In this document: positions 1,937 through 49,194 of the stretch, piece by piece
Position numbering within the stretch: the stretch's first letter is position 1
Layout of the letters: every line of letters starts with the position of its first letter
Origin: Planctomycetota bacterium
Lineage (GTDB): Bacteria > Planctomycetota > PLA2 > JAEUHO01
DNA length: 64,000 bases
Reading direction: 5' to 3'
NCBI GenBank assembly: GCA_020631815.1
Contig: JACKGW010000001.1
Span: forward strand, 209,683 to 273,682
Notes under the pieces: generated by a model
Told to the model about the DNA's origin: nothing
Seen by the model: the letters and a program-made list of their open reading frames with translations, nothing else
Databases searched by the model: none
Made by a program: the position numbers and the translations under genes

Positions 1937-3295
1937 ATGACGCCGAACGTCCCCGATCGCCTCGATGCCCTCTCGCGGCGCCGTGCAGCGTGCACCCCGC
2001 GAGAGGACGAGGTCGTGTCCATCGTCCCGGCTGGCGTCCCGATCCCCGTCGAGGGCACCGATGCCAGCTATCGGTTTCGAGGCCACGATCACGTCCGCCA
2101 CCTGCTCGGCGAGGTGCATCCCGGCGACGTCCTCGTGCACGTGCCCGGAGAGCCGTGGTGTCTGTACGCACCGGTCCCCGGGGCCGACGACGCGGTCTGG
2201 CACGGACCCACACCGCGCCCGGAGGAACGGGCCGAGCGCGCGGGTCTGACCCTCGGGCGTCCGCTCGACGAGCTCGCCCACCGGGTGGAGGGGGCGCCGG
2301 CCGTCGCCTACGCCGGTGCTCGCGACCTCCTCGAGCGGCCGGGCGCGTACGGCCTGCATCCCGAGATCGTGGGGAATTGGCGGATCGACGCGGACGCCAG
2401 CGCGGAGCTCGAGGACCGCATCGTGGGCTCACGCCTCGTGAAGGACGACGTGGCCCTCGATGCCATGCGGCGGGCCGTCGCGGCATCCGCGGCCGGCCAC
2501 CGCGCGGCCCGGGCCGCAGCCCGGGCCGGGCGCACCGAGCGTCAGATCGCTCGCGTGCTCGAACACGCGTTCGACGACGCCGGCGGCGAGGGCACGGCGT
2601 ACCCGTCCATCGTGTTGGCGGGCCGGCGCTCGCAGATCCTGCACGGTGGTCCCGACGACACCGAGATGCAGGACGGTGACTTGGTGTTGATCGACGCGGG
2701 CGCGGAGATCGACGGTTACGACGCGGACATCACGCGGACGTTCGCCGTGGGAGGAGTCGCCTCGCCGGAGACGCGCGCGGTCCACGACGTCGTGCGTCGC
2801 GTGCAGGCTGCCGTCGTCCGTCTCGTGGCGCCGGATGTCAGCACACGCATGCTCCACGAGGCGGCCTCGCGCGGCCTGGCGGAGGGACTTGTCGAGCTGG
2901 GCTTGCTGCGCGGCCGCGTGGACGACCTCCTTGCGGCCGATGCGCAGACCGTCTTCTTCCCGCACGGCATCGGCCACTTCCTCGGCCTTGCCACGCACGA
3001 CGTGGGTGGCTACCTGCGTGGTGCGCAGCGCTCGTCGCGGCCGAGCCTCAAGTACTTGCGCGCCGATCGCACGCTCCAGCCCGGCATGGTGATGACGATC
3101 GAGCCGGGGCTCTACTTCATCGACGCGTTGCTCGACGACCCCGACGTGCGCAGCGAGCGCAGGGCCCAGGTGGACTTCGAGCGTGCCGAGGCCTTCCGCC
3201 ATGTGGGCGGCGTCCGCATCGAAGACGACGTCCTCGTCACCCCCACGGGCCACGAAGTCCTCGGCGCCGACCTGGAGCGCGACCTAGGTGTCTGA
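1937..3295 (+). CDS. Xaa-Pro aminopeptidase / M24B metallopeptidase (PepP-like)
   Basis: ORF 1742..3295. C-terminal M24 pita-bread motifs: DAGAEIDGYDADITRTF, HGIGHFLGL, EPGLYF, GVRIEDDVLVT. Start chosen at ATG 1937 (MTPNVPDRLDAL...); ATG 1868 is an alternative. Upstream R-rich extension judged non-coding. Confidence 0.85.
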   Translation: MTPNVPDRLDALSRRRAACTPREDEVVSIVPAGVPIPVEGTDASYRFRGHDHVRHLLGEVHPGDVLVHVPGEPWCLYAPVPGADDAVWHGPTPRPEERAERAGLTLGRPLDELAHRVEGAPAVAYAGARDLLERPGAYGLHPEIVGNWRIDADASAELEDRIVGSRLVKDDVALDAMRRAVAASAAGHRAARAAARAGRTERQIARVLEHAFDDAGGEGTAYPSIVLAGRRSQILHGGPDDTEMQDGDLVLIDAGAEIDGYDADITRTFAVGGVASPETRAVHDVVRRVQAAVVRLVAPDVSTRMLHEAASRGLAEGLVELGLLRGRVDDLLAADAQTVFFPHGIGHFLGLATHDVGGYLRGAQRSSRPSLKYLRADRTLQPGMVMTIEPGLYFIDALLDDPDVRSERRAQVDFERAEAFRHVGGVRIEDDVLVTPTGHEVLGADLERDLGV

Positions 3296-3545
3296 TCCGG
3301 CGCTGCGGAGCGATAGCGACGCGGGGCGCCGGGTCTGACTCCGTGGTGGCGCTTCCAGGCGCATGTACGCGGTAGCCCGATCGCACGGGAGGGGCGTACA
3401 TGCCGGCGGACGCGGTTCAACCGAGCCAGACCCGGACGCCTCGCGTTGCCGCTGCGCGGCGCCGCAGCGCCGGATCAGGCACGTGGCCAGACCCGTGCGC
3501 CTCGCATCGTCGCCGACGCGACTCCACACCACCGGGTCAGGCGCC
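3288..3545. repeat. Cluster of three GTCTGA/TCAGAC-box elements (direct-repeat-flanked hairpins) plus a 10-bp-stem palindrome
   Basis: Unit 3288-3342 (gtgtctgatcc-[ccggcgc...gcgccgg hairpin]-gggtctgactcc). Units 3423-3483 and 3485-3545 (gagccagacccg...ggatcaggcacg; ggccagacccg...gggtcaggcgcc). Palindrome gcatgtacgc/gcgtacatgc at 3361-3403. Confidence 0.7.
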
Positions 3546-3627
3546 AGCCTTCCGGGCTCCCCGAACCGGTACCCGGGGGCCCGTGGACGGGGCGTAGACT
3601 CGCGCCCCCCTCGCTTCGGAGCAACGC

Positions 3628-6483
3628 ATGCATCGCTTCCCCGCCGCCCTGCTGGCCGCCGCCGCCCTGGCCGCTGGTTTCAGCCCGGCCCTTGCCAAGG
3701 AGACCGTGCCCGTGGACCGCCCGCTGCCCGTGGACGACCGCTACGACGTCCGCGAGACACTGCCCTCGGGCCTCAAGCTGTACGTTCGCCATCACGAGGT
3801 GCCCAAGGGCATGGTGGCGATGTGGCTCCACTTCGGTACCGGCTCGGTCAACGAGACCGATGCCGAGCGGGGGCTCGCGCACTTCCTCGAACACATGGCG
3901 TTCCGCGGCAGCACCCACTTCAAGCCCGGCACGGTCACGTCGCGCTTCGAGGACCTCGGTGTGCGCTTCGGCCGCGACCAGAACGCGATGACGTCGTTCG
4001 ACCAGACGACGTACCAGATCGCGTTGCCGCGCACCGACCCGCATGCCATCAGCGAGGCCCTGCTGTTCCTCTCCGACGTGGCGCATCGCCTCGCCTTGCT
4101 CGACCCGGAGATCGACGACGAGCGCGGCGTGGTGCTCGAAGAGGCGCGCGCCCGTGCCGGCGCGCAGATGCGCATCCTCGAGCAGCTGTTCCCGCTCGTG
4201 GCGCCCGGCTCGCTCATCGCCGAGCGGCTGCCGATCGGCATCCCCGAAGTCGTGCAGAAGATCGACTCCAAGGCCATGAAGGCCTACTGGAGCAAGTGGT
4301 ACCGGCCCGAGACGTCGACGTTGATGATCGTCGGCGACATCGATGCGCCGACCGTGGCCGCCATGGCCAAGCTGGCCTTCGCCGACTGGCGTCCGGCGGG
4401 CGACGTCCCCACGCCGCAAGACGGTGGCTTGCTCAGCCAGGGTGCGCGCCGCGCGGCCGTGCTGACCGACCCCGAGGTCACGCAGGCCGATCTCACGTGG
4501 ATGCGTGCCGAGCCCCTCGAGGCCTCCACGACCTACGGTGACTTCCGCGACTGGTGCGTGGATCGCCTGGGCACATGGATCGTGGGCCAGCGCCTCGACG
4601 AGCTGCGACGCACGGGCAACGCCCCGTTCCAGGACGCCGCGTTCCGCACGCAGCCTTTCGTCTCGGGCGCGCAGATCCGCACGCTGGACGTGCAGTCTCC
4701 GCCCGAGCGCTGGCGCGAGGCCGCCCAAGCGCTGCTCGTCGAGTGGCGCCGTGTGCAGCAGCACGGTGTGCTGCCGGAGGAGCTGACGCGCGCCAAGAAG
4801 GCGCTGCTTGCCGGCTTCGAGCAAGCCGTCGAGGGCGCTGGCGGCGTGCCGACCATCGGTGTCTTGGCGCAGCTCAACAACCTCGTCACGCAGGGCCGTC
4901 AGCCGATGTCCGAGGCCCAGCGCCTCGAGGTGGCCACCGACCTGCTGCCCGGCATCACCGCCGACGAGGTCACGAAGGAGCTGCAGACGGCGTACAACCT
5001 CGAGGGCGGCGTCGTCTACCTCGTGATGCCGGAGAAGGCCGGTCTGACCGTCCCGAAGGCCGAGGAGCTCGAGGTACTCGTTGCCGAGGCGGCCGCCATG
5101 GACGTTCCCGCGCCGACGTCCTCGGCCGACGTGGACCGTCTCGTGGCTCCGCCGGCCGCGGCCGGGGCCGTGACCAGCTCCGAGGTCCACGCCGGTCTCG
5201 ACGTGACGCATGTCACGTACGCGAACGGCCTGGAGGGCTACTACAAGACGCTGCCCTCCGGCGGCGACTCCTACATCCAGCTCGTGCTGCATGGTGGCAT
5301 CTGCGATGAGAACGCGGAGAACCGCGGCATCACGGCGTTGGCCGTCGATGCGCTCGACAGCGATGGCTTGGCCAGCAGCGAGCACGACGCCAGCGCGATC
5401 GCGGGCTGGCGCGTGGGCAAGAAGTTCCGCCTGAACCTCGCGCGCAATGGCGCGTCGGTGGTGCTGACCGTGTCGGGTGCGCCCGACGGATTGGCCGCGG
5501 GCTTGGAGCTGGCCCATCTGCTGCTGACCGACGGCGTCGTCACGCCGAGCGCATTGGAGACCGTTCGCGAGTCGCTCCTGCAGGATCTCGAGGACGCGCG
5601 CCGCAGCACGCAGCAGCAGGCGTTCACGCGCGTGCGTCAACGCGTCGGCGGTGACGACCCGCGTCTGGGCCTGCCGCCCGAGGCGACCGTCCGCGCGATC
5701 GATGCGGCCGCGGCGACCGCGTGGTGGAAGCACCTGGCGGCGACGGCTCCGATGGACGTGGTCGTCACGGGGCCGATCGGTGCGGACGCCGCGCAGGCCC
5801 TGGTCGGCACGTGGCTCGCCACGCTGCCCGCGCGACCCGAGGGCGCCTGGGCCGAGCACGTCAAGCACACGACGTTCGAGCGTCATCTGGCACCGGGTGG
5901 CGAGAACATCCGCGTGGTCACGATCACGCCGACGGCCGTGGCGCTCGAGGCGTGGGTGGGCATCGACCGCGATGACCCGGTCGCGCTGGCCCATGCCCAG
6001 CACGGCTCGATGATCCTCACGACGCGCTTGCTCAAGGAAGTGCGCGAGACGCGCGGCCTGACCTACTCGATCCAAGCCTTCCCCATGATCGGCGACTACC
6101 GCGGCCTCGAGCTGATGGGCGCGTTCTTCACCGCCGACAAGGACAAGCTCGAAGAGGCGGCCAAGATCGCCTACGAGACGGCGAAGGGCCTTGGCGAGGA
6201 AGGTCCGACGGACGTCGAGGTCAACGCGATCAACGTGCAGATGGCGCTGGGTCTCGCTCGCGAGAAGCAGCTGCCGACGTTCTGGCTGGGCACCCTCGGC
6301 GGTGCCCGTCAGCTCTCCGGCGGCCTCGACGCCGTCGCGCAGGGCATCACGGCTGCGGAGAAGGTCGACGTCGAGGGCCTCAAGGTGTTCCTCGCCAACC
6401 TGCTGCGCGACGAAAACTACCTGCATGTGCTCGCGCGTCCCTCGCCGCCCGACGACAGCGTCAAGCCCGAAGGCGTCAAGTAG
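3628..6483 (+). CDS. Secreted M16-family zinc peptidase (pitrilysin/insulinase-like, two M16 domains)
   Basis: 951 aa. N-terminal signal peptide (MHRFPAALLAAAALAAGFSPALA). HxxEH zinc-binding motif (GLAHFLEHMAFRG) near the N-terminus. Second inactive M16 domain. GGAG SD 6 nt upstream. Confidence 0.9.
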   Translation: MHRFPAALLAAAALAAGFSPALAKETVPVDRPLPVDDRYDVRETLPSGLKLYVRHHEVPKGMVAMWLHFGTGSVNETDAERGLAHFLEHMAFRGSTHFKPGTVTSRFEDLGVRFGRDQNAMTSFDQTTYQIALPRTDPHAISEALLFLSDVAHRLALLDPEIDDERGVVLEEARARAGAQMRILEQLFPLVAPGSLIAERLPIGIPEVVQKIDSKAMKAYWSKWYRPETSTLMIVGDIDAPTVAAMAKLAFADWRPAGDVPTPQDGGLLSQGARRAAVLTDPEVTQADLTWMRAEPLEASTTYGDFRDWCVDRLGTWIVGQRLDELRRTGNAPFQDAAFRTQPFVSGAQIRTLDVQSPPERWREAAQALLVEWRRVQQHGVLPEELTRAKKALLAGFEQAVEGAGGVPTIGVLAQLNNLVTQGRQPMSEAQRLEVATDLLPGITADEVTKELQTAYNLEGGVVYLVMPEKAGLTVPKAEELEVLVAEAAAMDVPAPTSSADVDRLVAPPAAAGAVTSSEVHAGLDVTHVTYANGLEGYYKTLPSGGDSYIQLVLHGGICDENAENRGITALAVDALDSDGLASSEHDASAIAGWRVGKKFRLNLARNGASVVLTVSGAPDGLAAGLELAHLLLTDGVVTPSALETVRESLLQDLEDARRSTQQQAFTRVRQRVGGDDPRLGLPPEATVRAIDAAAATAWWKHLAATAPMDVVVTGPIGADAAQALVGTWLATLPARPEGAWAEHVKHTTFERHLAPGGENIRVVTITPTAVALEAWVGIDRDDPVALAHAQHGSMILTTRLLKEVRETRGLTYSIQAFPMIGDYRGLELMGAFFTADKDKLEEAAKIAYETAKGLGEEGPTDVEVNAINVQMALGLAREKQLPTFWLGTLGGARQLSGGLDAVAQGITAAEKVDVEGLKVFLANLLRDENYLHVLARPSPPDDSVKPEGVK

Positions 6484-6635
6484 GCGCTCGGCCCTGGACT
6501 GGGCGCCGGAGCACCGCTTCGTCGTCCTTGCGTGGAGGACCACGCGGCGTCCTCCTCATCGGCACCCGGCATCCCATCCAGGGCCGAGCGCGGCACTCCC
6601 CCGGGAGGGGTGGTCACGCTTCGGATCCGACAGGG

Positions 6636-6664
6636 GCTCGGGACCAAGCATCTGGCGAACCGTT
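6636..6664. repeat. Isolated fragment resembling the element-C 3' tail (gggaccaagcatctggcgaaccg)
   Basis: Compare gggaccgagcatctggcgagccg (29195) and ggaccgagcatctggcgggccg (40032). Confidence 0.5.
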
Positions 6665-6695
6665 CCCGCGCCCCCCAGGAGGTGATCGCCTACCC

Positions 6696-12458: not shown

Positions 12459-12592
12459 GCGGCCCGGGTCCTCTACGGTCACGTAGCTCCATGCGGCCTG
12501 GCTACTCGTCTGGCCCACAGCCCGCTCCGGCCCCGGTCCTCTCGCGAGGGTGCTCTTCCCGACGGCTGCCAGCCGCGAGGCGTCGCCCAGGC

Positions 12593-16452: not shown

Positions 16453-16596
16453 CTCGAGCCTCCCGTGTCCGAGTCTCCGACCGGGAGAACGGACCGCCCA
16501 TTCTCGCGTTCACTCCGCGGGTCAGGGCGCGGGGCCCGAGCTTGTCCGAGGACACTCGGGCAGCAGTCGCCGCACCCCTCGCTCCGGCATGGCCCA

Positions 16597-16713
16597 GCTC
16601 GAGTCCGGATCCTCTGAGGTCAGGAGGCCGCCTCCGCCCCGGATTCTCGTCGTGCCTGTGGCTCGCTTCGGCCCCGGTGCCCTCGCGACGGAGTGTTTCC
16701 AGACAGACCCCAG
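16597..16713. repeat. Element E copy 1 (~115 nt), in the divergent intergenic region upstream of the SLC13 transporter
   Basis: Aligned against 38475-38590. A 55-nt core (ttctcgtcgtgcctgtggctcgcttcggccccggtgccctcgcgacggagtgtt) differs at one position. Confidence 0.8.
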
Positions 16714-16752
16714 GGGCCCTCGCATCTAAAGTCCGCGTCCGGGAGGCCGCGG

Positions 16753-18564
16753 ATGGACGGGCACGGCTGGGTGGCGATCGCGGTCCTCGTGGTCGCCACC
16801 GTGCTGTTCATCAAGAAGTGGCTGCCGGTGGGCGTCACGGCGCTGTCGATCCCCGTGGTGCTCCACGTGACGGGGGTGCTCCCGAAGGCCAGTGACGCGC
16901 TGCGTGGCTTCAGCAGCCCGGCCGCGGTGGCCATCGGGGCGGTGTTCGTGCTCGGCACGGGCCTGCGTGAGAGCGGCGTGGCCACGCTGCTGGCCCGCGG
17001 CATCCAGGCCTTGGGCGGGCGCAGCGAGGCGCGGCTCTGCCTCTTCGTGATGATCGCCACGGCGGCGCTGTCGGCGTTCATGAGCAACGCCGCCGTGGTG
17101 GCCATGCTGCTGCCCACCGTTCTCGTGCTGTCGCGGCGCTCGGGCGTGGCGGCCTCGCGGCTGCTCATGCCGCTGGCCTTCGCTGCCGTGCTGGGCGGCA
17201 CGATCACGATGGCCGGTACCGCCGGCAACATCCTGGTGGCCGACTACATCACGGGGCCCGAGGTGCCTGCGGGCATTCCGCCGCTCCAGCTGTTCGACTT
17301 CACGCCCATCGGTCTGGCCATCACGGCGGCGGGCATCGCCTTCGTGGTGCTGGTCGGGCGATGTCTGCTGCCGCGCAACCTCGCCGACGACCGGCGTCGC
17401 AAGCGCATGCCCGAGGACGTTGCGAAGAGCTTCAAGCTGTCCGAGTCGCTGCTGATGTTCGGCGTGCGCGAGGCCTCGCAGGCGGCGGGCCGCACGCTGG
17501 GCCAGCTCGACCTGCCAGGTCAGTACGGGATGAACCCGTTGATGGTGCGCCGTCCGGCACCCATGGGCGACAAGTGGATCCCGCCGGACGCGGGTGTGGT
17601 CCTGCAGCCCGGCGACCGGCTGTACGCGCAAGGGGCCGAATCGTCGGCATGGCTGCTGGCCGAGAGCGAGATGCTCCAGTTCGGCCTCGCTGGCCCGCGC
17701 GCGGTCGAGCGCATCCTCGGACGGGGCACGACGTTGGCCGAGGTCGCACTCCCGCCGCGCAGCCTCTATCTCGGCAAGACGCTCGAAGAGGAAGACTTCA
17801 CCGCGCGCTATGGCCTGCAGGTCTTGGCACTCTGGCGAGCCAACGGGGAGGAGATCGAGGAGCCCCTCGGCCACAGGCTGGACGTGGGTGACAACTTCCT
17901 CGTGTCGGGTACGGCCCGCGCCGTCCATCGCCTCGAGACGCAGGCCGACTTCACGGTGCTGACCGACCAGAGCCAGGTCGAGGACGTCACGCGCGCCCCG
18001 CTGGCCATCGGCATCCTCGTGGCGTGCTTGGTGCCGGTCGTGGCATTCAACATGCCGTTGGCCCTGGCAGCCCTCGGCGGTGCATTGCTGATGGTCGTGA
18101 CGGGATGTGTGACCAAGCCCGCCCTGCGACGGGCCGTCGACTGGAACGTGCTCGCCTTGATCGTGGGCACGCTGCCGCTGGGCTTGGCGCTCGAGATGCA
18201 TGGGATTGCCGACGTTGCCGCGAGTGCGGTTGTCGACGTGGGTACGTCCGCGTCATCCGTGGGCGTGATCGCGATCCTGTTCGCGCTGGCGGCGGTGCTC
18301 GCCACGCTCACCAGCAACGCGGCAGCTGCCCTGATCGTGGCGCCCGTGGCAGCCCGCGCCGCGGCCGTTGCCGGGCTGCACCCGACCACCGCCCTGCTGG
18401 CCGTGGCCTATGGGACGTCCTGCGCGTTCGTCCTGCCCTTTGCCCAGTGGAACCTGATGGTGGCGGTGCCCGGCGGCTACGGGAACCGCGACTACCTGAA
18501 GATGGGCAGCCTCGTCACGCTGGTCTACGCGATCGTGGCCATCGCCCTGCTCTCCCTGCGCTGA
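16753..18564 (+). CDS. SLC13/DASS-family anion transporter with two internal TrkA-C (RCK_C) domains
   Basis: ATG 16753 after GGGAGG. About 12 TM segments. Cytoplasmic TrkA-C-like inserts (LGQLDLPGQYGMNPLMVRR..; LAEVALPPRSLYLGKTLEEEDFTARYGLQVLALWR). Typical CitT/SLC13 C-terminal hairpins (SNAA motifs, two copies). Confidence 0.85.
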   Translation: MDGHGWVAIAVLVVATVLFIKKWLPVGVTALSIPVVLHVTGVLPKASDALRGFSSPAAVAIGAVFVLGTGLRESGVATLLARGIQALGGRSEARLCLFVMIATAALSAFMSNAAVVAMLLPTVLVLSRRSGVAASRLLMPLAFAAVLGGTITMAGTAGNILVADYITGPEVPAGIPPLQLFDFTPIGLAITAAGIAFVVLVGRCLLPRNLADDRRRKRMPEDVAKSFKLSESLLMFGVREASQAAGRTLGQLDLPGQYGMNPLMVRRPAPMGDKWIPPDAGVVLQPGDRLYAQGAESSAWLLAESEMLQFGLAGPRAVERILGRGTTLAEVALPPRSLYLGKTLEEEDFTARYGLQVLALWRANGEEIEEPLGHRLDVGDNFLVSGTARAVHRLETQADFTVLTDQSQVEDVTRAPLAIGILVACLVPVVAFNMPLALAALGGALLMVVTGCVTKPALRRAVDWNVLALIVGTLPLGLALEMHGIADVAASAVVDVGTSASSVGVIAILFALAAVLATLTSNAAAALIVAPVAARAAAVAGLHPTTALLAVAYGTSCAFVLPFAQWNLMVAVPGGYGNRDYLKMGSLVTLVYAIVAIALLSLR

Positions 18565-18686
18565 GGGGCCTCCCCGCGCCGCAGGCTCCGGTCCGCGGAC
18601 GGGGCAGGAGACCCGAGCGCCCGATCGCCGGGGGGCGACGCCCCGCGCACCGGGTACCTTGACTCGCCCGCTTTGGAGGACTCCCC

Positions 18687-19979: not shown

Positions 19980-19987
19980 CGCGCGGA

Positions 19988-20120
19988 GGTGTCTGAACCC
20001 GTGCCACGGCGCATGGCGCCAGTGGAACGGGGTCTGACACCGAAGTGCGCCTTCCGCTTGGGTTCAGACCCCGTGCCCGCGGCGTCGCCAAGGCGACGCC
20101 GCATCACGGGATCAGACCCC
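19988..20120. repeat. Two tandem GTCTGA/TCAGAC-box elements in the convergent intergenic space
   Basis: 19988-20041 ggtgtctgaaccc-[hairpin]-ggggtctgacacc. 20059-20120 gggttcagacccc-[gcggcgtcgcc aa ggcgacgccgc perfect 11-bp hairpin]-gggatcagacccc. Confidence 0.75.
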
Positions 20121-21302
20121 GCGCTCCACCAGCGCTGCGAGGCCGAGGCCGCCGGAGATGCAGAGCGTGGCGACGCCGCGCTTCGCGCCGCGCTCCTTCA
20201 TGCTGTGCAGCAGCGTGACCAGGATGCGGCAGCCTGTGGCGCCGATCGGGTGGCCCAGCGCGATGCTGCCGCCGTCGACGTTCATGCGATCCAGGTCGAT
20301 GCCCAGCTCGCGGTTGCAGGCCAGGACCTGCGCCGCGAAGGCCTCGTTCAGCTCCCACAGGTCGATGTCGTCGATCGACAGACCCGTCTTCTCGAGCAGC
20401 TTGCGAACCGCGGGCACCGGCCCCAGGCCCATCTCGCGCGGCTCGACGCCGGCCTCGGCGTAGGCCACCAGACGGGCCTCCGGGGTCACACCGTGCTGCT
20501 TCACGGCGTCGTCGCCGAGCACGACGATGGCGGCCGCGCCGTCCGTGATGCCGCTGCTGTTGCCGGCGTGCACGGTGCCGTTCTTGCGGAACACCGGGGG
20601 CAGCTTCGCGATCTGCTCGATCGTCACGTTGTCGCGCGCGTGCTCGTCGGCGGTGAAGTCGTACGTGCCCTTCTTGCGGTCCGTGATCTGGATCGCGACC
20701 TTCTCGGCGTCGAAGCGCCCGCGCTCGCGCGCGGCCTGGGCGCGCTGCTGGCTGGAGAGCGCGTAGCGGTCCTGCTCCTCGCGCGGGATGCCGTAGCGGT
20801 CCACGAGGTTCTCGGCCGTCTCGCCCATCAGCTGGTCGGCGAGCTTGCAGTGGAAGCCGTCCTGGTACATCCCGTCCACGATCTGGTCGTGACCGAGGCG
20901 GTAGCCCCAGCGCGCGCGCGGCAAGAAGTAGGGCGTGTTCGACATGCTCTCCATGCCGCCCGCGAGAACGATCTCCGCTTGGCCAAGCCGGATGGCGTCG
21001 GCACCGAGCAGCACGCTCTTCAGCCCGCTGCCGCAGGCCATGTTCACGGTGTAGGCGGGACTCTCGACGGGCACGCCCGCGCGCACGGCGACCTGCCGAC
21101 CGGTGCTGGGGCCCTGTCCCGCCTGGCGACCATGGCCGAAGATCGACTGGTCCACGGCCGAGGCCTCGACGCCTGCGCGGCTCAGCGCACCGCGCGCCGC
21201 GGCCTCGCCGAGATCCGGGGCTGACAGCGGGGCCAGCGTGCCGCCGAAGCGGCCGATCGGGGTGCGTGCCGAGCCGGCCAGCCAGATCGCCGTGTCGCGC
21301 AT
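20112..21302 (-). CDS. Acetyl-CoA C-acetyltransferase (thiolase II)
   Basis: 396 aa from ATG 21302 (GGAGAC SD). Active-site motifs [11 protein letters not shown] (Cys), [17 protein letters not shown] (His), CISGGLGLA (Cys). The upstream R-rich extension to 21431 is rejected. Confidence 0.9.
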
Positions 21303-22841: not shown

Positions 22842-22858
22842 GCGTGCGGCGTTCGCTT

Positions 22859-22919
22859 GGGATCAGACCCCGTGCCCGCGGCGTCGCCAGGGCGACACCG
22901 CATCACGGGATCAGACCCC
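22859..22919. repeat. GTCTGA/TCAGAC-box element, near-identical to 20059-20120
   Basis: gggatcagacccc-gtgcccgcggcgtcgccagggcgacaccgcatcac-gggatcagacccc. 59 of 61 nt identical to the 20059 copy. Confidence 0.8.
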
Positions 22920-22947
22920 GCGCGGGCGCTTCCGTACGTGGTGCCGC

Positions 22948-24563: not shown

Positions 24564-25766
<1,203 letters not shown>

Positions 25767-28641: not shown

Positions 28642-28662
28642 CGCGGCTCGCGACGGGGCGGC

Positions 28663-29217: not shown

Positions 29218-29241
29218 ACCTACGCACCCCGGCGCACGCCC

Positions 29242-30264: not shown

Positions 30265-30572
30265 GCCTGCGGAGGCTACCCGCGAGGGGCCGTGCCGCGA
30301 CGCGCCGAACCGGCGTGCTCCGGCTCGGTCGGATTGCGCGCGACCCCCCCGCCCATGCATGATGGAGGGGTCGTGCGACGCGGGCTTCGCCGGGCCCGCC
30401 CGTGCGGTCGGGTTCGTTTGCGTCTGCGCCCACTGGGTCGCGGCGTCTTCGGTCACCCCGCCGTCCGGGCCCCGCGAGCTTTTCGTGGGGCCTGGGGAGG
30501 GCGAGCGACCGGGGCATCGCCATCCCGGTTTCCGCGCCGACGTGCGCTCCCGGCTCGCGGACGGGAGGGCGC

Positions 30573-31133
30573 GTGGAACAAGCGATCTACACCTGGATGG
30601 CCGTCATCGGCTGCGGGATCTTGCTCGTCCAGGTCATCTTGCAAGTCATCGGCGTGGGTGACCACGACGGCGACCTCCACGTCGACATCGATGGCGACGT
30701 GGGCGACGGCGACTTCGGCCACGGCGACTGGTTCTTCGGGTTCTTGTCCTTCAAGACGCTGGTCGCGTTCGTCGGCTTCTTCGGCCTGACCGGTCTGCTG
30801 CTCCTGGAGCGCGACATGGGCACGCCGCAGCGGGCGCTCTACGCGACGCTCGCCGGCCTGGCCGCCGTCGTGGTGGTCGGCTACTTGATGAAGATGCTCC
30901 ATGCGCTGGGGCACTCGGGCACGCTCGACGTGACCAACGCCCTCGGCGTCGAGGGCACCGTCTACCTGCGCATTCCCGCGGCCGGGGCCGGGCGCGGCAA
31001 GGTCACGCTCGACGTGCAGGGCCGCAGCGTGGAGCTGGGCGCCGTCACGGACGGCCTCGAGCTGCCCACCGGCGCACGCGTGCGCGTCGTGGAAGTCGTC
31101 GGTGAGGACCTCGTACGGGTCGAAGCGCGCTGA
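30573..31133 (+). CDS. NfeD-like membrane protein (YqiJ-type flotillin partner)
   Basis: GTG 30573 after GGGAGGG (alternative ATG 30597). Two to three TM helices, a His/Asp/Gly-rich loop, and a C-terminal OB-fold-like β-domain (GTVYLRIPAAGAGRGKVTLDVQGRSVELGAV). Immediately upstream of a flotillin gene, the classic NfeD-SPFH pairing. Confidence 0.7.
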   Translation: MEQAIYTWMAVIGCGILLVQVILQVIGVGDHDGDLHVDIDGDVGDGDFGHGDWFFGFLSFKTLVAFVGFFGLTGLLLLERDMGTPQRALYATLAGLAAVVVVGYLMKMLHALGHSGTLDVTNALGVEGTVYLRIPAAGAGRGKVTLDVQGRSVELGAVTDGLELPTGARVRVVEVVGEDLVRVEAR

Positions 31134-31178
31134 ACAGATGTCGCCTCTGGCACGCGCCAGGGGACCAAGGAGAACGCC

Positions 31179-32822
31179 ATGGGGTCGATGTTGGACGTAG
31201 GACTGCAGCTCGGGGGTGATCAGGTCGAGCTGATCATGGTCGCCTTCGGCGTCCTGTTCCTGTTCAGCTTCATCGTGCTGCTGGTCAAGCGCTACAAGCG
31301 CTGTCCCAGCAACCGGGTGCTGGTCAAGTACGGCAAGGTCGGAGGCGGAGGCGCCTCCCAGTGCATCCACGGCGGCGGCACGTTCGTCTGGCCGCTCATC
31401 CAGGACTACGACTTCCTGGACTTGGAGCCGCGGCAAATCGAGATCCCGCTACGCGGCGCCCTCTCCATGGAGAACATCCGCGTCAACGTGCCGTCGGTTT
31501 TCACGGTCGCCGTGGGTACCGAGCCGGCCGTCATGAACAACGCGGCCATCCGCCTGCTCGGGCTGAAGCCCCACGACATCGACGCCCAGGCCCGCGACAT
31601 CATCTTCGGTCAGCTGCGTCAGGTGATCGCCTCGATGCGCATCGAGGAGATCAACCGCGACCGCGACGCCTTCCTCGATCGCATCCAGACGTCGCTCGAA
31701 CCCGAGCTGCGCAAGATCGGCCTCGTCCTGATCAACGTGAACATCACCGACATCACGGACGAGTCCGGCTACATCGAGGCCATCGGCCGCAAGGCCGCGG
31801 CGACGGCCGTGAAGCAGGCCGAAGTCGACGTGGCCGAGCAGGAGAAGCGCGGCGCGATCGGCGTGGCGCTGGCCGAGCGCGAGAAGGACATCCAGGTGGC
31901 CGACGCCACCAAGGAGCGCGACATCGGCACCAAGGGTGCGGAGAAGGACCGCGTGATCGAGGTGGCCAACCTCGATCGCCAGGCTCGGGTCGGCGAGCAG
32001 ACCGCGGCGCTCCAGCGCGACTCGGACATCGCGGACGCCGAGCGGGACAAGCGCGTGCGCGTGGCCCAGGCCGATGCATTGGCCGTTACGGGCGAGAACG
32101 CCTCCAAGGCCAAGATCGCCGAGGCCGACGCCGAGCTTCAGGTCAAGCGCGCCGAGGCCTACCAGCGAGGCGAGACGCGCAAGCGCGTGGCCGAGGCCGA
32201 GGTGCTGCGTGAGCAGTACCTGGCGCAGGCCGAGGCCGCCAAGGCCCAAGGCGAGAAGATCGAGGCCGAGCGGATGGCCGATCTCGTGGCCACCGCCCGC
32301 GCCACACGCGCCAAGGTCGTCGTGGACGCCGAGGCCGAGGCCGAGCGCCGGCGGATCGAGGCCACGGGTGACGCGGCTGCGATCTACGCGAGGCTCGAAG
32401 CCCAGGCCCGAGGCGAGTACGAGATCCTGGCCAAGAAGGGTCAGGCGCTCGGTGAGATCGTGAAGGCCTGCGGCGGTCCGCAGAGCGCCTTCCAGATGCT
32501 CATGCTGGAGCACCTGGAGAAGCTGTCGGAGAACGCGGCCCAGGCCATCAGCAACATCAAGTTCGACAAGATCGTCGTCTGGGACGGTGGCACGGGCACG
32601 GACGGCCGTGGGGCCACGTCGAACTTCCTCTCCGGTCTGGCCGGTTCCCTGCCGCCGATGATGCACATGATGCGCGACATCGGTGGCGTCGAGATGCCCG
32701 AGTACTTCGGCAAGCTCGTGCGCGCCGAGGAGGTAGCCGACGCTGAGGCGGCGACGGATGACACCCCGCCGGCCGAGACCAAGCCGACGCCGCCCAAGAA
32801 GGGCAAGCCGCCGAGCGCGTAG
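31179..32822 (+). CDS. Flotillin-family SPFH/band-7 protein (YqiK/FloA-like)
   Basis: 547 aa. AGGAGAA SD. N-terminal TM helix, SPFH domain, long EA-rich coiled coil (flotillin repeats). C-terminal Gly-rich, Pro/Lys tail. Confidence 0.9.
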   Translation: MGSMLDVGLQLGGDQVELIMVAFGVLFLFSFIVLLVKRYKRCPSNRVLVKYGKVGGGGASQCIHGGGTFVWPLIQDYDFLDLEPRQIEIPLRGALSMENIRVNVPSVFTVAVGTEPAVMNNAAIRLLGLKPHDIDAQARDIIFGQLRQVIASMRIEEINRDRDAFLDRIQTSLEPELRKIGLVLINVNITDITDESGYIEAIGRKAAATAVKQAEVDVAEQEKRGAIGVALAEREKDIQVADATKERDIGTKGAEKDRVIEVANLDRQARVGEQTAALQRDSDIADAERDKRVRVAQADALAVTGENASKAKIAEADAELQVKRAEAYQRGETRKRVAEAEVLREQYLAQAEAAKAQGEKIEAERMADLVATARATRAKVVVDAEAEAERRRIEATGDAAAIYARLEAQARGEYEILAKKGQALGEIVKACGGPQSAFQMLMLEHLEKLSENAAQAISNIKFDKIVVWDGGTGTDGRGATSNFLSGLAGSLPPMMHMMRDIGGVEMPEYFGKLVRAEEVADAEAATDDTPPAETKPTPPKKGKPPSA

Positions 32823-32834
32823 TCGACCCGCGGC

Positions 32835-32894
32835 TGTGTCAGAACCCTTGCTGGGGAGCCGCGCAGCGGCGACGCGGGCAAGGTGTCTGACACG
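32835..32894. repeat. GTCTGA/TCAGAC-box element (inverted-box variant)
   Basis: tgtgtcagaaccc-[hairpin-like 34 nt]-ggtgtctgacacg. An additional lone box ggggttcagacacc at 33052-33065. Confidence 0.6.
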
Positions 32895-32979
32895 CCGGGG
32901 GCGCTTCCGATCGCCAGCGAACGCCGCACTGCGCCAACTGACCGAGGGCTGGGTGCACGGTGGGTCGTGCCGCGCTCCC

Positions 32980-33054
32980 GCGCGGAGTCGGCGCTCGGGC
33001 AGACGCCCTCGCGGCAGAGGGGCTATTCCGTACCCCCTCTGCACTCCTCACGGG
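32980..33054. repeat. Element D copy 2
   Basis: cgcgcggagtcggcgctcgggcagacgccctcgcggcagaggggctattccgtaccccctctgcactcctcacgg. About 67/75 identical to copy 1. The 52-nt hairpin-containing 3' part is identical. Confidence 0.8.
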
Positions 33055-33056
33055 GT

Positions 33057-34181
33057 TCAGACACCTCCGCGCGCCGGCGCGAACACAGCCGGCGCGGGAG
33101 CGCCACCGAGCGCGGCCTCGGCCACAGCGGCTCCGAGGCCGAGGCCCCAGCCCATGCCGTGTCCCATGAGACCCGCGAGCACGTAGAGTCCGTCGGCGCC
33201 GGGCCAGGCGCCGGCGAGCGGCAGGCCGTCGGGCGTGAACGCCATCGTCCCGGCCCAGCGCGCAATGACCTTGCGCCGCTGCGCATGGGGAAACCAGCGT
33301 GCGAGCAGCCGCTCCAGCGCTCGTTGCACCGCGGGGCCGGGCGTCTCGTCCGTGGTGCGTTCTTCATCGCCCCCCTCGTCACGCTGACCGCCGAGCAGCA
33401 CCGTTCCCGTCGACAGCACGCGGAGGTAGTCGTGCCCGCCGCGGGCGTACACGGGACGGGGTGCGCGCGGTGTCGGCTTGACGCGCGCGGCCAGCATCTG
33501 GGCGCGCCACGCCGTGAGCCGCAGGTCGGCAGTTCCGGCCGGCGCGAGCGCGCCTGACGCGTGCGAGGCCGTGACGACGACGATCGCCGGCTCGATCACG
33601 CGCTCACCCACCACGACCCGCCAGCGCGTGCCGTCGCGCTCCGGACGTGTCACGCGCACACCCTCGCTCAGGGCGGCACCTGCGCGGCGCGCTTCGGCGA
33701 CTACCGCGTCGAGGAGGTGGAGGGGGTCGACCGCGCCATCGCCGTCGTCGACGAGGCCGCCGAGCCAGGGCCCACCCCGCCAGGGCGCGGGCAAGCGATC
33801 GGCGGCGAGCCATGTGAGGCCCAAGGCGTCTGCCGTGGCCTCGAGGTCGGCGGCCTCGTCGGGATCCACCGCCAAGCGCAAGCTGCCGGAGGGGACCCAG
33901 CCGATGTCGTGGTGACGGGCCAGATCGCGGACCGCCTCGCGCGTGGCGAGCCCTGCCGCACGAAGCGCATCCGCCACGTCCCGCCCCTGGGACTGGGCGA
34001 CGCGCGCGTAGGGGTCGGCGCCGTCGGCCAAGATGAAGCCTGCGTTGCGTCCCGTCGCGCCCTCACCGGCGCGGCGCACGTCGACCCAGGCGACCGTGGC
34101 CCCGCGTTGCGCGGCCGCGCGCGCCACAGCGGCGCCGGCGATGCCGGCGCCCAGGACCAGCACGTCCGGGCGTGCGGGCAC
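33057..34181 (-). CDS. FAD-dependent oxidoreductase (DAO family, glycine/D-amino-acid oxidase-like)
   Basis: N-terminal Rossmann dinucleotide motif DVLVLGAGIAGAAVARAAAQRGATVAWVD. C-terminal DAO-type motif GLYVLAGLMGHGMGWG. Start set at GTG 34181 (uncertain; no in-frame ATG nearby). The remainder of ORF 33057..36653 is rejected. Confidence 0.75.
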   Translation of the reverse strand: MPARPDVLVLGAGIAGAAVARAAAQRGATVAWVDVRRAGEGATGRNAGFILADGADPYARVAQSQGRDVADALRAAGLATREAVRDLARHHDIGWVPSGSLRLAVDPDEAADLEATADALGLTWLAADRLPAPWRGGPWLGGLVDDGDGAVDPLHLLDAVVAEARRAGAALSEGVRVTRPERDGTRWRVVVGERVIEPAIVVVTASHASGALAPAGTADLRLTAWRAQMLAARVKPTPRAPRPVYARGGHDYLRVLSTGTVLLGGQRDEGGDEERTTDETPGPAVQRALERLLARWFPHAQRRKVIARWAGTMAFTPDGLPLAGAWPGADGLYVLAGLMGHGMGWGLGLGAAVAEAALGGAPAPAVFAPARGGV

Positions 34182-38336: not shown

Positions 38337-38474
38337 GGGCTGGGTCTCCACGGCCGGCCAGCCGACCCGGGTCGAGAGCCACCGAGGAGACGAGGACGGG
38401 TTCCGCCTGGAGCTCCGGGTCTGTCTGAGAACACGTCCTGCTGCGGCCACCGTGTCTCTCGCTGCGCCCGCCCC

Positions 38475-38590
38475 AACTCGAATCCGGGTCCTTTGGCGGT
38501 CAGGGGACCGCCTCCGGCCCGGCTTCTCGTCGTGCCTGTGGCTCGCTTCGGCCCCGGTGTCCTCGCGACGGAGTGTTCTCAGACGCACCC
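38475..38590. repeat. Element E copy 2, between the divergent desaturase genes
   Basis: About 85-88% identity to copy 1 over ~115 nt. Same orientation. Confidence 0.8.
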
Positions 38591-38748
38591 TAGGCGCGAG
38601 GAGCCCTGATTGTCAGGTCTCTTCCTCCATTTCGGGGATTCCGATGGGGATCGCGCTTCAGCGGATGTGAATCCGGTTCGACCCGGGGTATTGGCGCCCG
38701 CGTTGCGCGTCGTGCGCGTAGCCTCCCCGGACTCCCGGCGGAACCTCC

Positions 38749-39762
38749 ATGCCTCGAACCACATTTTGCGACGCCCCCGCCGCGGCGGCGTCTACATCGC
38801 GAGGCCCCTTCGCCGCGACGCGTCCCTTCACGCGGGGCAGTGCGCGCAAGGAGGCGTGGTTCCTGGTCTCGACGTTCGCCGTGATGGCCGCCTTCGCCAC
38901 GGTGGCCGTGCTGCCTCTCGCGTGGCCTCTGCGCCTCCTCGGGTCTCTGGGGACGGGCCTCACCATGGTGCGGGCGTTCATCCTGTTCCACGACCGCCAT
39001 CACGGGGCCGCGTTCACCGAGTCGCGCATCGCCAAGCTCGTGCTCGACGCGTACGGCCTCCTGCTGCTGACGCCGCCGCGCCTGTGGCGCTACACGCACA
39101 ACTACCATCACGCCCACACGGCGCGGACCGACGGCGACCAGCGCGGAACGTACACCCTGTTCACCACCGAGCAGTGGCGCAACGCGTCCAAGCGAGAGCG
39201 CTTCGCCTACCGCGCGGAGCACCACCCGCTGACCTTGCTGTTCGGCTACGTCACGGTGTTCCTGGGCACCTTCGGCGTCTGGCCCGTGCTGCGCAAGCCC
39301 GCGGCGTCCTGGGACAGCCTGGCCTCGCTCGTCGTGCACGCCGGCGTCGGCACCCTCGCCTGGGTACTCGGCGGACCCGCGGTCTTCGTCTTCGCCTTCC
39401 TCATCCCGTTCTTCCTGGCGGGTGCGATCGGCGCGTTCCTCTTCTACGTGCAGCACTACTTCGAGGAGTGCTCCGTGCCCGACGAGGCGACGTGGACGCA
39501 CGCGGGCGCCGCACTGGGCGCATCCAGCCACGTGGCCTTCGGCCCGGTGGGTAGCTGGTTCACGGGCAACATCGGCCTGCACCACATCCACCACCTCAAC
39601 CCGAAGATCCCCTTCTATCGCCTGCCCGAAGCGCTCGCCGCCGTGCCGGCGCTCCAGACCTCCAAGCCCATCGTCCTGAGCCCGCGCGCCATCGCTCGCT
39701 GCCTCCGCCTCAAGCTCTGGGATGCCGACTCCGGTCGCCTCGTCGCCTACGCCGACGCGTAG
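38749..39762 (+). CDS. Membrane-bound fatty-acid desaturase (three His-box type)
   Basis: His boxes HDRHH, HNYHHAH, HHIHH with correct spacing. About four TM helices. 337 aa from the annotated ATG; an internal start is possible. Confidence 0.85.
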   Translation: MPRTTFCDAPAAAASTSRGPFAATRPFTRGSARKEAWFLVSTFAVMAAFATVAVLPLAWPLRLLGSLGTGLTMVRAFILFHDRHHGAAFTESRIAKLVLDAYGLLLLTPPRLWRYTHNYHHAHTARTDGDQRGTYTLFTTEQWRNASKRERFAYRAEHHPLTLLFGYVTVFLGTFGVWPVLRKPAASWDSLASLVVHAGVGTLAWVLGGPAVFVFAFLIPFFLAGAIGAFLFYVQHYFEECSVPDEATWTHAGAALGASSHVAFGPVGSWFTGNIGLHHIHHLNPKIPFYRLPEALAAVPALQTSKPIVLSPRAIARCLRLKLWDADSGRLVAYADA

Positions 39763-39792
39763 GTAGGGCCGCGAGCCTGGGTGCGGTGGGGC

Positions 39793-39879
39793 GGCTCGCC
39801 AGATGCTCGGTCCCGCACCAGCATCGGCTCCTCGAGTGAACAGACCACGAGTCGTCGCCGATGCTGGCGCGCTACCTTC
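39793..39879 (-). repeat. Element C, copy 3 (reverse orientation; stem variant ccagcatcggc/gccgatgctgg)
   Basis: ggctcgccagatgctcggtcccgcacc-agcatcggctcctcgagtgaacagaccacgagtcgtcgccgatgctgg. Compensatory change within the stem (atggt→atgct on both arms) preserves pairing. Confidence 0.75.
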
Positions 39880-40090
39880 GCCCTGACGACCCGATGCGTA
39901 GCGGGTGGCATTCGAAGCCAAGATGCGGGCGTGATGTGCTGAGGCGGCTCCGGGGGAGCCCGGGCGGACGCGCGTTTCCGGTCCGCTGCAATCGGTCACC
40001 GCGCGGCGCTCGAGCCGGGCGCGCGGCTCGGGACCGAGCATCTGGCGGGCCGTACCTGGGCACGGTGGGGCCTCAGCGCATACTCACTCC

Positions 40091-48050: not shown

Positions 48051-48992
48051 ATGTCGGACGACGTACAGAAGTGGTGCGCGCTGGGTGCCCAGCACCTCGA
48101 GCAGGGCGAGCCCGAGGAGGCTCTGCACTGGTACGAGCGGGCCATCGACGCCGATCCGGACAACGCCGACGCCTGGTGCGGGCGGGCCAAGAGCCAGTAC
48201 GACATGGGGCGCCTCGAGCGCGCCGACCGGGACTACCGGCATGCGCTGCGCTTGGCCAAGGAGCAGCTGCGGCTGGGCGAGGCCGAGACCGGCCCGCGCC
48301 GCTGGTGGCTGGACCCCGAGACGCGGCCCTACCTGCATGCGCTCCGGGGCAAGGGGCTGTGCCGCTACTGGCTGGGTGACTGGCCGGGGGCCGTGCGCGC
48401 CTTCCAGCGCCTGCTCCAGCTGGCGCCGACGGATCCGCTCGACGCCCGCTACATGCTGGGCGAGGCCTGGCTCCGCGACGGTGACATCGACCGGGCGGTC
48501 CGCGCCTGGCAGGAGATGGGGGACGACCCCGACGCCCTCTACAACCTCGGCCTCGGCTACTTCTACCGCGGCGAGTTCGCCCGCTCGGTGCATGCGTTCC
48601 GTCGCGGCATCTTCGAGAACCTGTTCCTCGTGGCTCGCTTGGCCAACGCCGAGATCATCTCGAACGTGCCCCATTACAGCGGCACGCACACGAAGGGCCT
48701 GGACTGCGAAGGGTCGGCAGCCGACTACCTCGACCGCTGCGGCGACCTCTGGCGTGGCCGTCCGATCCTGGCCCGCTGGCTGCGCTCGATCTACGAGCAC
48801 CCCCAGGTGCAAGAGGACGTGACGCGCCACGTCGAGCACCTGCGTGCCCTCGTGCGCGAGGACCTCGCCATCGGCGACCGTGCCCAGCTCGAAGGCGCCA
48901 ACACGGCGCTGCGCAGCGAGGAACGCCTCGAGCAGACCGACGCCACCATCGCTGCCGAGCTCTGCGAGCGCCTCTTCCGCGTCAACGATTGA
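48051..48992 (+). CDS. TPR-repeat protein
   Basis: ATG 48051. Repeated W..G/Y..A TPR-like helices (EEALHWYERAIDADPDNADAWCGRAKSQYDMGRLERA; PGAVRAFQRLLQLAPTDPLDARYMLGEAWL). Confidence 0.7.
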   Translation: MSDDVQKWCALGAQHLEQGEPEEALHWYERAIDADPDNADAWCGRAKSQYDMGRLERADRDYRHALRLAKEQLRLGEAETGPRRWWLDPETRPYLHALRGKGLCRYWLGDWPGAVRAFQRLLQLAPTDPLDARYMLGEAWLRDGDIDRAVRAWQEMGDDPDALYNLGLGYFYRGEFARSVHAFRRGIFENLFLVARLANAEIISNVPHYSGTHTKGLDCEGSAADYLDRCGDLWRGRPILARWLRSIYEHPQVQEDVTRHVEHLRALVREDLAIGDRAQLEGANTALRSEERLEQTDATIAAELCERLFRVND

Positions 48993-48999
48993 CGGGGAG

Positions 49000-49194
49000 G
49001 TGTCTGATCTGGCGCAGCGGAGCGAAGCGACGCGGGGCGCCGGGTCTGACACCCCCCGTGCGACGCTCGCCGGCGAGGCGGCGCCTCCGCAACCGAGGGG
49101 CAGCGGCCGCTGGGGTGTGCGGGACCCTCGGTGGAGCCAGACCCCGCGCCCCGCGTCGCCCCTGAAGGGCTCCGCTGCGCGGGATCAGGCACCC
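49000..49194. repeat. Two GTCTGA/TCAGAC-box elements
   Basis: 49000-49054 gtgtctgatc-[tggcgcagcggagcgaagcgacgcggggcgcc]-gggtctgacacc, about 90% identical to 3288-3342. 49134-49194 gagccagaccccg...gggatcaggcaccc is similar to 3423-3483. Confidence 0.75.

Follow-up and report, generated by a model that had tools for sequence, protein, structure and literature searches.

Sequences of the repetitive extragenic palindromic (REP) type occur less than 20 bp from gene 3' ends and may supply the stop codons of the preceding genes (PMC3733652, sect. 15). The genes of the TIRYT, or 'TIRtron', class (Di Nocera et al. 2013, PMC3733652) are flanked by repeats that share the motif GGGGWSAS, and some of these repeats are complementary to themselves, form dimers and reach moderate abundance (PMC3733652, sect. 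16). This class has been equated with TnpA_REP subclass 2.1 (Quentin et al. 2018, PMC6006769) and also with group 1 of the tyrosine transposases associated with REPs (RAYTs) (Bertels et al. 2017, PMC5581495). Subclass 2.1 comprises long proteins with a DnaA_C-like helix-turn-helix (HTH) domain, and the published account states that REP-like sequences were not found in their vicinity (PMC6006769, sect. 20). Here we analyse 64,000 nucleotides of a Planctomycetota genome (assembly GCA_020631815.1, contig JACKGW010000001.1, positions 209,683 to 273,682; referred to as the window; G+C content 71%), in which short hairpin-forming repeat units lie between genes. These units are very probably REP/BIME-like (bacterial interspersed mosaic element-like) or REPIN-like repetitive extragenic palindromes with a cognate Y1 transposase, and the leading interpretation of an earlier note on this DNA, which had called them REP/BIME-like, thus stands. 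Five lines of evidence carry it: covarying palindromes, fixed inverted dimers, location at gene 3' ends, rapid turnover between strains and the presence of a Y1 transposase gene.

Hairpin units behind genes

The units had been described as two GTCTGA-type boxes on either side of a separate hairpin. Box 1 and box 2 are mutually complementary and make up the two strands of a basal stem; because the boxes pair with each other, each unit is one long hairpin. The conserved basal stem reads 5'-GGKGYC-T-GAWCC / GGKTC-T-GRCNCC-3'. In it, columns 10/60 of the alignment form a T·T mismatch and columns 13/57 a T·G wobble; in the unit at 32832..32896 an A-T pair takes the place of the mismatch. The middle stem covaries (CCGGCGC/GCGCCGG, CCCGTG/CACGGG, CCCTTGC/GCAAGG, CCCGCGC/GCGCGGG) and the apical hairpin is variable. 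All nine units of the window align as one family with 22 pairs, of which 8 show changes on both sides; 94.1% of the pair cells are paired, compared with 31–52% in slid controls, and none of 500 shuffles reached the score. An enlarged alignment of 60 matches, 56 of them distinct, was drawn from 26 sources (the window and its flanks, further strains, a sister species and contigs from metagenomes). Among the 56 distinct copies, 93.8% of cells are paired (slid controls 30–48%), 9 pairs have compensatory changes and 90 cells are double changes, and again 0/500 shuffles reached the score. The boxes CCAGACCC / GGATCAGGC, taken in that note for degenerate versions, rather represent a subtype, A2, where the U-A of pair 8/62 has given way to C-G through a change on each side (32 vs 21 sequences).

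A covariance model built from the alignment of the nine units and run across the whole window recovers exactly these nine (46.8–79.6 bits), the next-best match in the window scoring 18.8 bits. The window thus holds nine units of 55–67 nt and one truncated element in five intergenic gaps. Every unit listed in the earlier note lies where it had been placed, and the sequences that it quoted all occur, whereas its total of at least 11 units in six regions was too high; its own list, too, sums to the lower figures. Folded as single-stranded DNA, the units reach z values of -1.9 to -8 against dinucleotide shuffles. The features are as follows (position, strand, description, covariance-model (CM) score):

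3284..3344, + strand: A1 unit, GGTGTCTGATCCGGCGC...GCGCCGGGTCTGAC; CM 73.5 bits; fold -20.1 kcal/mol, z = -4.0
3345..3419, no strand: 75-nt spacer of the first A1-A2 dimer, from the dimer measurement
3420..3486, - strand: A2 unit, GTGCCTGATCC...GGGTCTGGC, tail-to-tail with the A1 unit at 3284; CM 74.6 bits; fold z = -2.65
3487..3541, - strand: A2-like unit, third in the gap and more degenerate; CM 50.5 bits over model positions 8-60; fold z = -1.9
19985..20043, + strand: C unit, 9 nt past the TAG stop of a 430-aa gene; CM 46.8 bits; fold -26 kcal/mol, z = -7.95
20058..20123, - strand: B unit supplying the stop of a thiolase gene (Pfam Thiolase_N/C); CM 72.8 bits
22857..22922, - strand: single B unit, 29 nt past the stop of a 184-aa - strand gene; CM 73.6 bits
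32832..32896, + strand: E unit, 13 nt past the stop of a flotillin/Band_7 gene; CM 70.5 bits; fold z = -3.8
32965..33074, - strand: D7-type element of ~110 nt whose 5' end is the lone box 33053-33074; 93% identity to 25955-26038
48996..49055, + strand: A1 unit, 7 nt past the stop of a TPR gene; CM 69.3 bits
49056..49130, no strand: 75-nt spacer of the second A1-A2 dimer, from the dimer measurement
49131..49196, - strand: A2 unit ending 1 nt before the stop of an ABC-2 permease gene (49197-50459, - strand); CM 79.6 bits; fold z = -3.7

Over the window as a whole the hexamer GTCTGA is not enriched (19 copies observed, 31 expected), while the five gaps, 968 nt in total, contain 12 of the 19 (binomial P = 6.5e-18). 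All five clusters are intergenic, and intergenic DNA makes up 12% of the window according to our gene map (P ~3e-5). Identities of about 90–97% between copies had been noted before, and realignment gives 92.5% for 20045-20124 against 22844-22923 and 93.0% for 3286-3342 against 48998-49053. Likewise, the lone box noted earlier is borne out, since 33053-33074 matches the reverse complement of 19979-20000, at the start of the unit at 19985, over 22/22 nt. No unit reaches a gathering threshold in Rfam 15, and permissive searches over the units return generic hairpin matches far below threshold; a tRNA-Ala (anticodon CGC, 59673-59748) is the sole Rfam or ARAGORN match in the window.

Five subtypes of unit can be distinguished (A1, A2, B, C and E), and units are paired tail-to-tail with their box-1 ends facing outward. 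Identity among dispersed copies is 92% for A1 and 85% for A2. The dimers are of three kinds:

A1-A2 dimer: 75-nt spacer in 7 of 11 dimers measured; tail-to-tail without exception among the pairs found
C-B or A1-B dimer: spacer of 17 nt
C-E dimer: spacer of about 38 nt

The A1-A2 dimers measured include those with the window spacers 3345-3419 and 49056-49130 and those of five other loci (L081, L119, L126, L134 and L128). Their spacers keep their length, whereas their sequences are 57% alike, compared with 54% for shuffled sequences, which is chance level. A further A2/A1 dimer occupies positions 1-194 of a metagenome contig (L127), ~1.1 kb upstream of a 16S-23S rRNA operon (1352-5365), and this contig could yield the 16S sequence of the organism for classification.

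The units are positioned with respect to genes in a consistent manner, their dimers occupying short gaps past gene 3' ends. The box-1 side points towards the 3' end of a co-directional gene in 44 of the 52 units that have a neighbour, mostly within 4–30 nt. In seven genes the TGA of a box is itself the stop codon, six times through a unit (distance -8) and once through a lone box of the D7 type, and the frame of these boxes is always GGN-GTC/GCC-TGA. For instance, the aminopeptidase P gene pepP (ORF 1742-3295, Pfam Peptidase_M24) ends on the box-1 TGA at 3293-3295, the thiolase gene on the box-1 TGA complementary to 20112-20114, and the gene of an FAD oxidoreductase (DAO; L001 11879-13003, corresponding to window 33057-34181) on the box TGA complementary to 33057-33059.

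In region 32832-33074, an E unit and a box-1 end form a composite that a D7 repeat interrupts, and the same E/D7/box arrangement recurs behind gene stops in a sister species (L112 and L155). The D7 element, of ~110 nt, has a hairpin of its own (CAGAGGGGG-TACGGAATA-GCCCCTCTG) and is present at window 25950-26038 and 32965-33053, L112 11303-11410, L155 1300-1400 and L124 2521-2632. It begins with box 1 of the units in 4 of these 5 copies and is located directly behind gene stops, including that of the sister-species transposase described below.

Strain turnover and the Y1 transposase gene

The window is 99.6% identical to contig JACKHQ010000004.1 of the metagenome-assembled genome (MAG) GCA_020638895.1, and strains were compared using further MAGs of the same species and metagenome contigs with 98.5–99.6% identity to the window where measured (L001-L006). 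At two sites, behind pepP and in the gap between the 430-aa gene and the thiolase gene, flanks that are 99% identical enclose different units, and the breakpoints lie inside the last codons. Behind pepP, strain contig L082 carries C and E units whereas the window carries A1-A2-A2 between otherwise identical flanks; the native pepP end in L082 reads ..LGA-TGA (GGC GCG TGA), compared with ..LGV-TGA in the window. In the second gap, L092 has an A1-A2 dimer, whereas in the window a C-B dimer is fused to the coding sequence, and the thiolase accordingly ends in ..VERA-TAG in L092 and L095 but in ..VERGV-TGA in the window. In L092 the thiolase stop is followed by ~17 nt of native flank. Turnover extends to relatives. 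The B unit at 22857..22922 is absent from the orthologous site of a relative with an 84%-identical ortholog (L112). In L112 the gap between the 430-aa gene and the thiolase gene measures 1 kb and contains C, E and D7 elements. In relatives at 57–60% identity this gap is 38–50 nt long. Orthologous gaps at either level of identity lack the units of the window, and in two of the more distant loci (L115, L116) the gap holds a simple hairpin only, with the box at its apex (CCCTCC-GGGGTCAGACCCC-GGAGGG). Repeats also coincide with breaks in synteny: the synteny of L003 and L124 with the window ends exactly at the box/D7 element beside the DAO gene, at 33073/33074 and at 32963, respectively. A UbiA gene replaces DAO in L003, and a different upstream gene is found in L124. 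These breaks suggest either that recombination took place at the repeats or that assemblies were joined through them.

A RAYT search had been proposed in the earlier note, and a Y1/HUH transposase gene was indeed found in the same species with A1-A2 dimers on both sides. On a metagenome contig with three units (L131), the ~950-nt stretch between units has atypical codon usage and a low G+C content at third codon positions, and encodes a 309-aa protein (ORF 227-1156, identical to P0024). P0024 matches Pfam Y1_Tnp with 37.9 bits (cut-off 23), and its HUH histidines H60/H62 and tyrosine Y118 align with those of E. coli RayT at an overall identity of 22%. An AlphaFold model (pLDDT 80.6) has as its top fold match in the PDB the RAYT-REP hairpin complex 4ER8_A (E = 5e-8, TMt 0.73), followed by the transposases of IS608, IS200 and ISDra2 at ~1e-4. 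Residues 218-305 form a confident helical domain whose sole direct domain match, to Sigma70_r4_2, is weak (E = 0.02); homologues P0029 and P0030 possess a C-terminal Bac_DnaA_C HTH domain (35–40 bits) that aligns with it. With E. coli RayT as the query, phmmer gave no match among the ORFs of any locus, missing even the true homologue, and a PDB sequence search with P0024 returned none.

The P0024 locus is single and fixed, with the order PhoU -> [A1 A2] gene -> [A1 A2] <- Ppx/GppA. It is carried by MAGs GCA_020427815.1 and GCA_041398685.1, in which the loci of the window are also present, and by four metagenome contigs, and the A1-A2 dimers lie on both sides of the gene in six contigs of the species. 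The stop codon of P0024 is itself inside box 1 (..ERGGV*). In a sister species, the 53%-identical homologue P0025 is flanked by the C and E units and D7 element of that species and ends in ..GGV*. Three homologues with 48–53% identity (L150 6916-6930, L155 1301-1315 and the C-terminus of P0026) all end in ..GGV-stop. The shared ends indicate that the box-1 sequence GGNGGTGTCTGA is part of the transposase gene's own 3' end in each lineage.

Related boxes and enzymes occur more widely. Perfect inverted repeats of 25 nt, AAAACCGGGGTCAGAGTGCACTTTC, stand on both sides of a 33%-identical homologue (L157), and a family hidden Markov model detects a decayed transposase copy in an Acidobacteriota MAG (L014), located between GGGGTCWGACCCC boxes. 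The motif GGGGWSAS is present exactly, as GGGGTCAG, in the repeats flanking both homologues and in the L116 hairpin, while the boxes of the window species are one base off, with GGGGTCTG on the upper strand and GGTGTCAG / GGGATCAG on the lower. The GTCTGA box may be recognised by a protein, as the earlier note had suggested, an idea in agreement with the published GGGGWSAS motif of the repeats beside this class of transposase (PMC3733652, PMC6006769). A pattern scan of genome contigs (AGGTGTCTGAN{25,50}GGGTCTGAC) gave 74 matches, of which about half are estimated to be due to chance and none came from the source genome. The remaining matches are box-bearing repeat clusters in Hyphomicrobium, Burkholderiales, Gemmatimonadota, Vicinamibacterales, Actinomycetota and others; since these repeats of other phyla score only 21–32 bits with the Planctomycetota model, they do not belong to the same family. 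A literature search by sequence strings (GGGGTCTGACCCC and similar) retrieved unrelated primers only.

Some of these clusters have layouts of their own. In the Burkholderiales MAG STL-PRO89, 14 GKGTCWGACMC boxes are arranged in tandem over 430 nt behind a gene end (L077 6003-6435; also L024 and L033), much more densely than in the window. Hyphomicrobium MAGs (L030 897-925, L049 694-720, L057 6804-6830) have a minimal form, GGTGTCTGACCC-NNN-GGGTCTGACACC, consisting of two boxes that pair around a 3-nt loop, and adjoining longer units that enclose a CCCGCC-GGAG-GCGGG hairpin. Between boxes in L014 lies a glutaredoxin-like ORF (4740-4960, - strand) with a TGA that, judged by eye, is in frame and close to the start; the ORF may encode a selenoprotein or be a pseudogene.

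The window also contains other repeats. A second intergenic family of up to ~190 nt, with the invariant core GGGACCGAGCATCTGGCG, is unrelated in sequence to the hairpin units and occurs at 6623-6676, 24417-24560, 25846-25932 (- strand), 29114-29247, 39738-39923 (- strand) and 40013-40066, as well as at L140 1815-2010. A third family of 100–177 nt and 70–80% identity is found at 12464-12576, 16543-16717 and 38422-38597, two of its three copies lying in divergent, promoter-side gaps. A 15-nt periodic, Lys/Ala-rich repeat (AKKKAAKKA...) at 21534-21794 encodes an N-terminal histone-H1-like tail on MqnA (VitK2_biosynth), with a weak match to Pfam HC2.

Competing explanations and a proposed mechanism

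The least improbable of the rival explanations, which we nevertheless consider very unlikely, is that the units are locally evolved terminators or attenuators, or mRNA-stabilising 3' hairpins without a U-tract, kept by selection and immobile. Their position 0–30 nt past stops, their orientation with the upstream gene and the strong hairpins that they form are all in keeping with such a role, as is the simple hairpin of distant relatives in the orthologous convergent gap. However, no T-run follows any unit (0–3 T in the 12 nt downstream), and a terminator scan of 18000-34000, which covered four of the nine units, flagged none of the four. Moreover, 92% identity behind unrelated genes, with spacers at chance level, is not expected from independent evolution, strains that are 99% identical in the flanks have different units, and the Y1 transposase gene has units on both sides. 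The terminator/attenuator option of the earlier note fares worse than the REP/BIME-like reading in view of the missing U-tract, the 92% identity of dispersed copies and the strain polymorphism, although the units may have a secondary, exapted role in 3' untranslated regions (3'-UTRs).

That note had also raised the option of miniature inverted-repeat transposable elements, that is, non-autonomous derivatives of DDE-type insertion sequences (ISs) that move by cut-and-paste and have terminal inverted repeats (TIRs) and target-site duplications. The A1-spacer-A2 dimer of ~200 nt does resemble a small element with inverted ends of ~60 nt. Yet target-site duplications are seen at neither dimer nor unit ends, the interior lacks sequence conservation, each 'end' by itself forms a hairpin that covaries, and single units exist too; in addition, the gene flanked by the repeats encodes a Y1/HUH enzyme and not a DDE transposase. 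Given the lack of target-site duplications and of a conserved spacer, we regard this explanation as highly improbable.

Very little credence can likewise be given to the view that the units are double-stranded sites at which a regulator or nucleoid protein reads direct GTCTGA repeats, with the hairpin potential being incidental. In its favour, the box (GGKGTC-T-GACMCC) is nearly palindromic, as sites bound by dimers usually are, and the enzyme class has a C-terminal HTH domain. On the other hand, compensatory changes preserve the pairing of box 1 with box 2 and of the inner stems, and the box-to-box spacing varies from 41 to 48 nt. Furthermore, owing to the T·T mismatch and the T·G wobble, the GTCTGA-reading strand folds better than its complement by 4–6 kcal/mol in all four units tested (top versus bottom strand, in kcal/mol: -20.1 vs -13.9; -23.0 vs -19.0; -29.3 vs -23.8; -16.8 vs -12.4). 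Such a bias would be meaningless for duplex binding and marks one strand as the meaningful one.

Integron-like attC sites, or other targets of tyrosine recombinases at the ends of gene cassettes, share with the units imperfect palindromes, unpaired bases, variable length and a location directly past stops, but the units occur in both orientations among housekeeping genes (pepP, thiolase, mqnA, flotillin), lack an R''/R' GTTRRRY core, have no integrase in the window or its flanks and are associated with an HUH Y1 protein, so that this reading is the least credible of all. Xer/dif and CRISPR readings were rejected on the same orientations and gene context and on the absence of integrase and cas genes from the window and flanking loci. 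A likeness of the box to the start of the Tn3 inverted repeat (first 10 nt, GGGGTCTGAC) was judged coincidental, as no match extends past these 10 nt.

Several points weigh against the REP/BIME-like reading with a cognate transposase. We infer mobilisation by the Y1 enzyme from genomic association and homology. The match of P0024 to NCBIfam REP_Tyr_transpos, the equivalog of REP-associated tyrosine transposases, scores 56 bits, below the cut-off of 80, and in the window species only A1 and A2 units, and none of the B, C or E subtypes, adjoin the transposase gene. A clean pair of empty and filled sites with exact ends was not found among the strains compared; strains differ by replacements, and these might equally result from gene conversion between copies. 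Units are dispersed (9 across the 64 kb, another 6 over 20 kb of adjacent DNA and more at ~20 further loci in metagenomes), but their genome-wide copy number is extrapolated from ~100 kb. Finally, at 55–67 nt the units are about twice as long as classical REPs (20–40 nt), and the 5' GT[AG]G tag is missing from the hairpin foot, where GGAG (A1, C), GCGG (A2), CGCG (B) or variable sequence (E) is found and GTAG appears in single copies only. Given this length and foot sequence, the units do not belong to the classical GTAG-tagged REP class.

Based on the REP/BIME-like reading, we hypothesize that the conserved basal stem with its mismatch is what the Y1 enzyme recognises in the folded single strand that reads GTCTGA, and that the enzyme cuts and rejoins this strand as E. 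coli TnpA_REP does with REPs, so that units or dimers would be copied or moved and become homogenised. Copies would persist chiefly just past stop codons, presumably because insertions elsewhere are harmful. Transcription of units behind genes would give hairpins in 3'-UTRs, by which transcripts may be stabilised or terminated, and units may also act as recombination points, which would explain the synteny breaks. One speculative idea is that the inner hairpin inserts into the centre of a solitary box, between the C and T of TCTGA. Solitary palindromic boxes that could serve as such 'empty sites' are absent from ~150 kb of the species and occur only in distant relatives, so the insertion idea stays speculative.

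If the preferred reading is correct, a REP/BIME-type system with its enzyme is documented for an uncultured Planctomycetota lineage, as a new case of a known kind of selfish or domesticated DNA. Its repeats rewrite the last codons of housekeeping genes (seven gene stops, plus the transposase gene's own) and coincide with synteny breakpoints. For annotation, such hairpins would account for many of the false short ORFs, unusual C-termini ('..GV*') and broken contigs met with in high-GC MAGs.

Comparison with known systems

The REP/BIME-RayT system of E. coli (TnpA_REP, 'REPtron') resembles the one described here in many respects. Both have imperfect palindromes of several subtypes in inverted pairs with set linkers (cf. 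the Y/Z1/Z2 BIMEs), a 3'-end location in unidirectional and convergent gaps and one Y1 gene flanked by REP pairs, and 4ER8_A is the best structural match of P0024. In contrast to E. coli REPs, however, the conserved part of the units is the mismatched basal stem, and P0024, at 22% identity, is twice as long as RayT and has an extra C-terminal domain. With the GTAG- and CGTC-tagged REP superfamilies (Di Nocera et al. 2013) the units share their distribution with respect to genes, stops provided by the repeat end and head or tail dimers, whereas their stems are far longer than 8–9 bp and lack a CCA tail. TGTC, a listed variant of the CGTC tag, does occur in box 1, but it is base-paired here and not an unpaired tag, and CGTC repeats have no associated transposase while the units have one.

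The REPINs of Pseudomonas fluorescens SBW25 (Bertels & Rainey 2011, PMC3116915) are likewise repeated units of two inverted REPs and a spacer, with a single-copy, vertically kept RAYT and lineage-specific repeats. In the Planctomycetota dimers, however, the arms belong to different subtypes (A1, A2), and the spacer keeps its length (75 nt) and not its sequence, whereas REPIN copies normally share their entire sequence. Members of the IS200/IS605 family (IS608, ISDra2) and their miniature derivatives have in common with this system the HUH/Y1 fold, the lack of target duplication and the use of imperfect single-strand hairpins with unpaired or mismatched bases as recognition elements. Here, by contrast, the repeats do not delimit the transposase gene as the left and right termini of a single mobile IS, this gene is at one fixed locus in all strains, and the IS608 and ISDra2 structures match the P0024 model ~1000-fold worse than 4ER8.

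The best fit for the enzyme and its repeats is probably the TIRYT / subclass 2.1 branch. As in that class, a long Y1/HUH protein (~310 aa) has a C-terminal domain, here putatively HTH-like (Bac_DnaA_C in homologues P0029 and P0030), its gene lies between inverted repeats with a GGGG[AT][CG]A[CG] motif, the repeats occur in dimers or clusters and are in part self-complementary, and the class is phylogenetically widespread. The difference is that the published flanking repeats are called TIRs, while here they are covarying hairpins in fixed hetero-dimers at a high apparent density of ~0.18 per kb. We put forward tentatively, as somewhat less than an even chance, that the HTH-bearing TIRYT / subclass 2.1 branch runs genuine high-copy REP/REPIN-type systems, in which the phylum-spanning GGGGWSAS / GTCWGAC is the mismatched (T·T, T·G) basal stem of a single-strand hairpin read by the enzyme and not a linear TIR motif. 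If true, this would amount to a third REP 'superfamily' besides GTAG and CGTC, extending over Planctomycetota, Acidobacteriota, Hyphomicrobium, Burkholderiales, Gemmatimonadota, Actinomycetota and others. A probably HTH-bearing Y1 enzyme together with hairpin repeats that have a GGGGWSAS / GTCTGAC core offers a concrete biochemical substrate for this RAYT branch.

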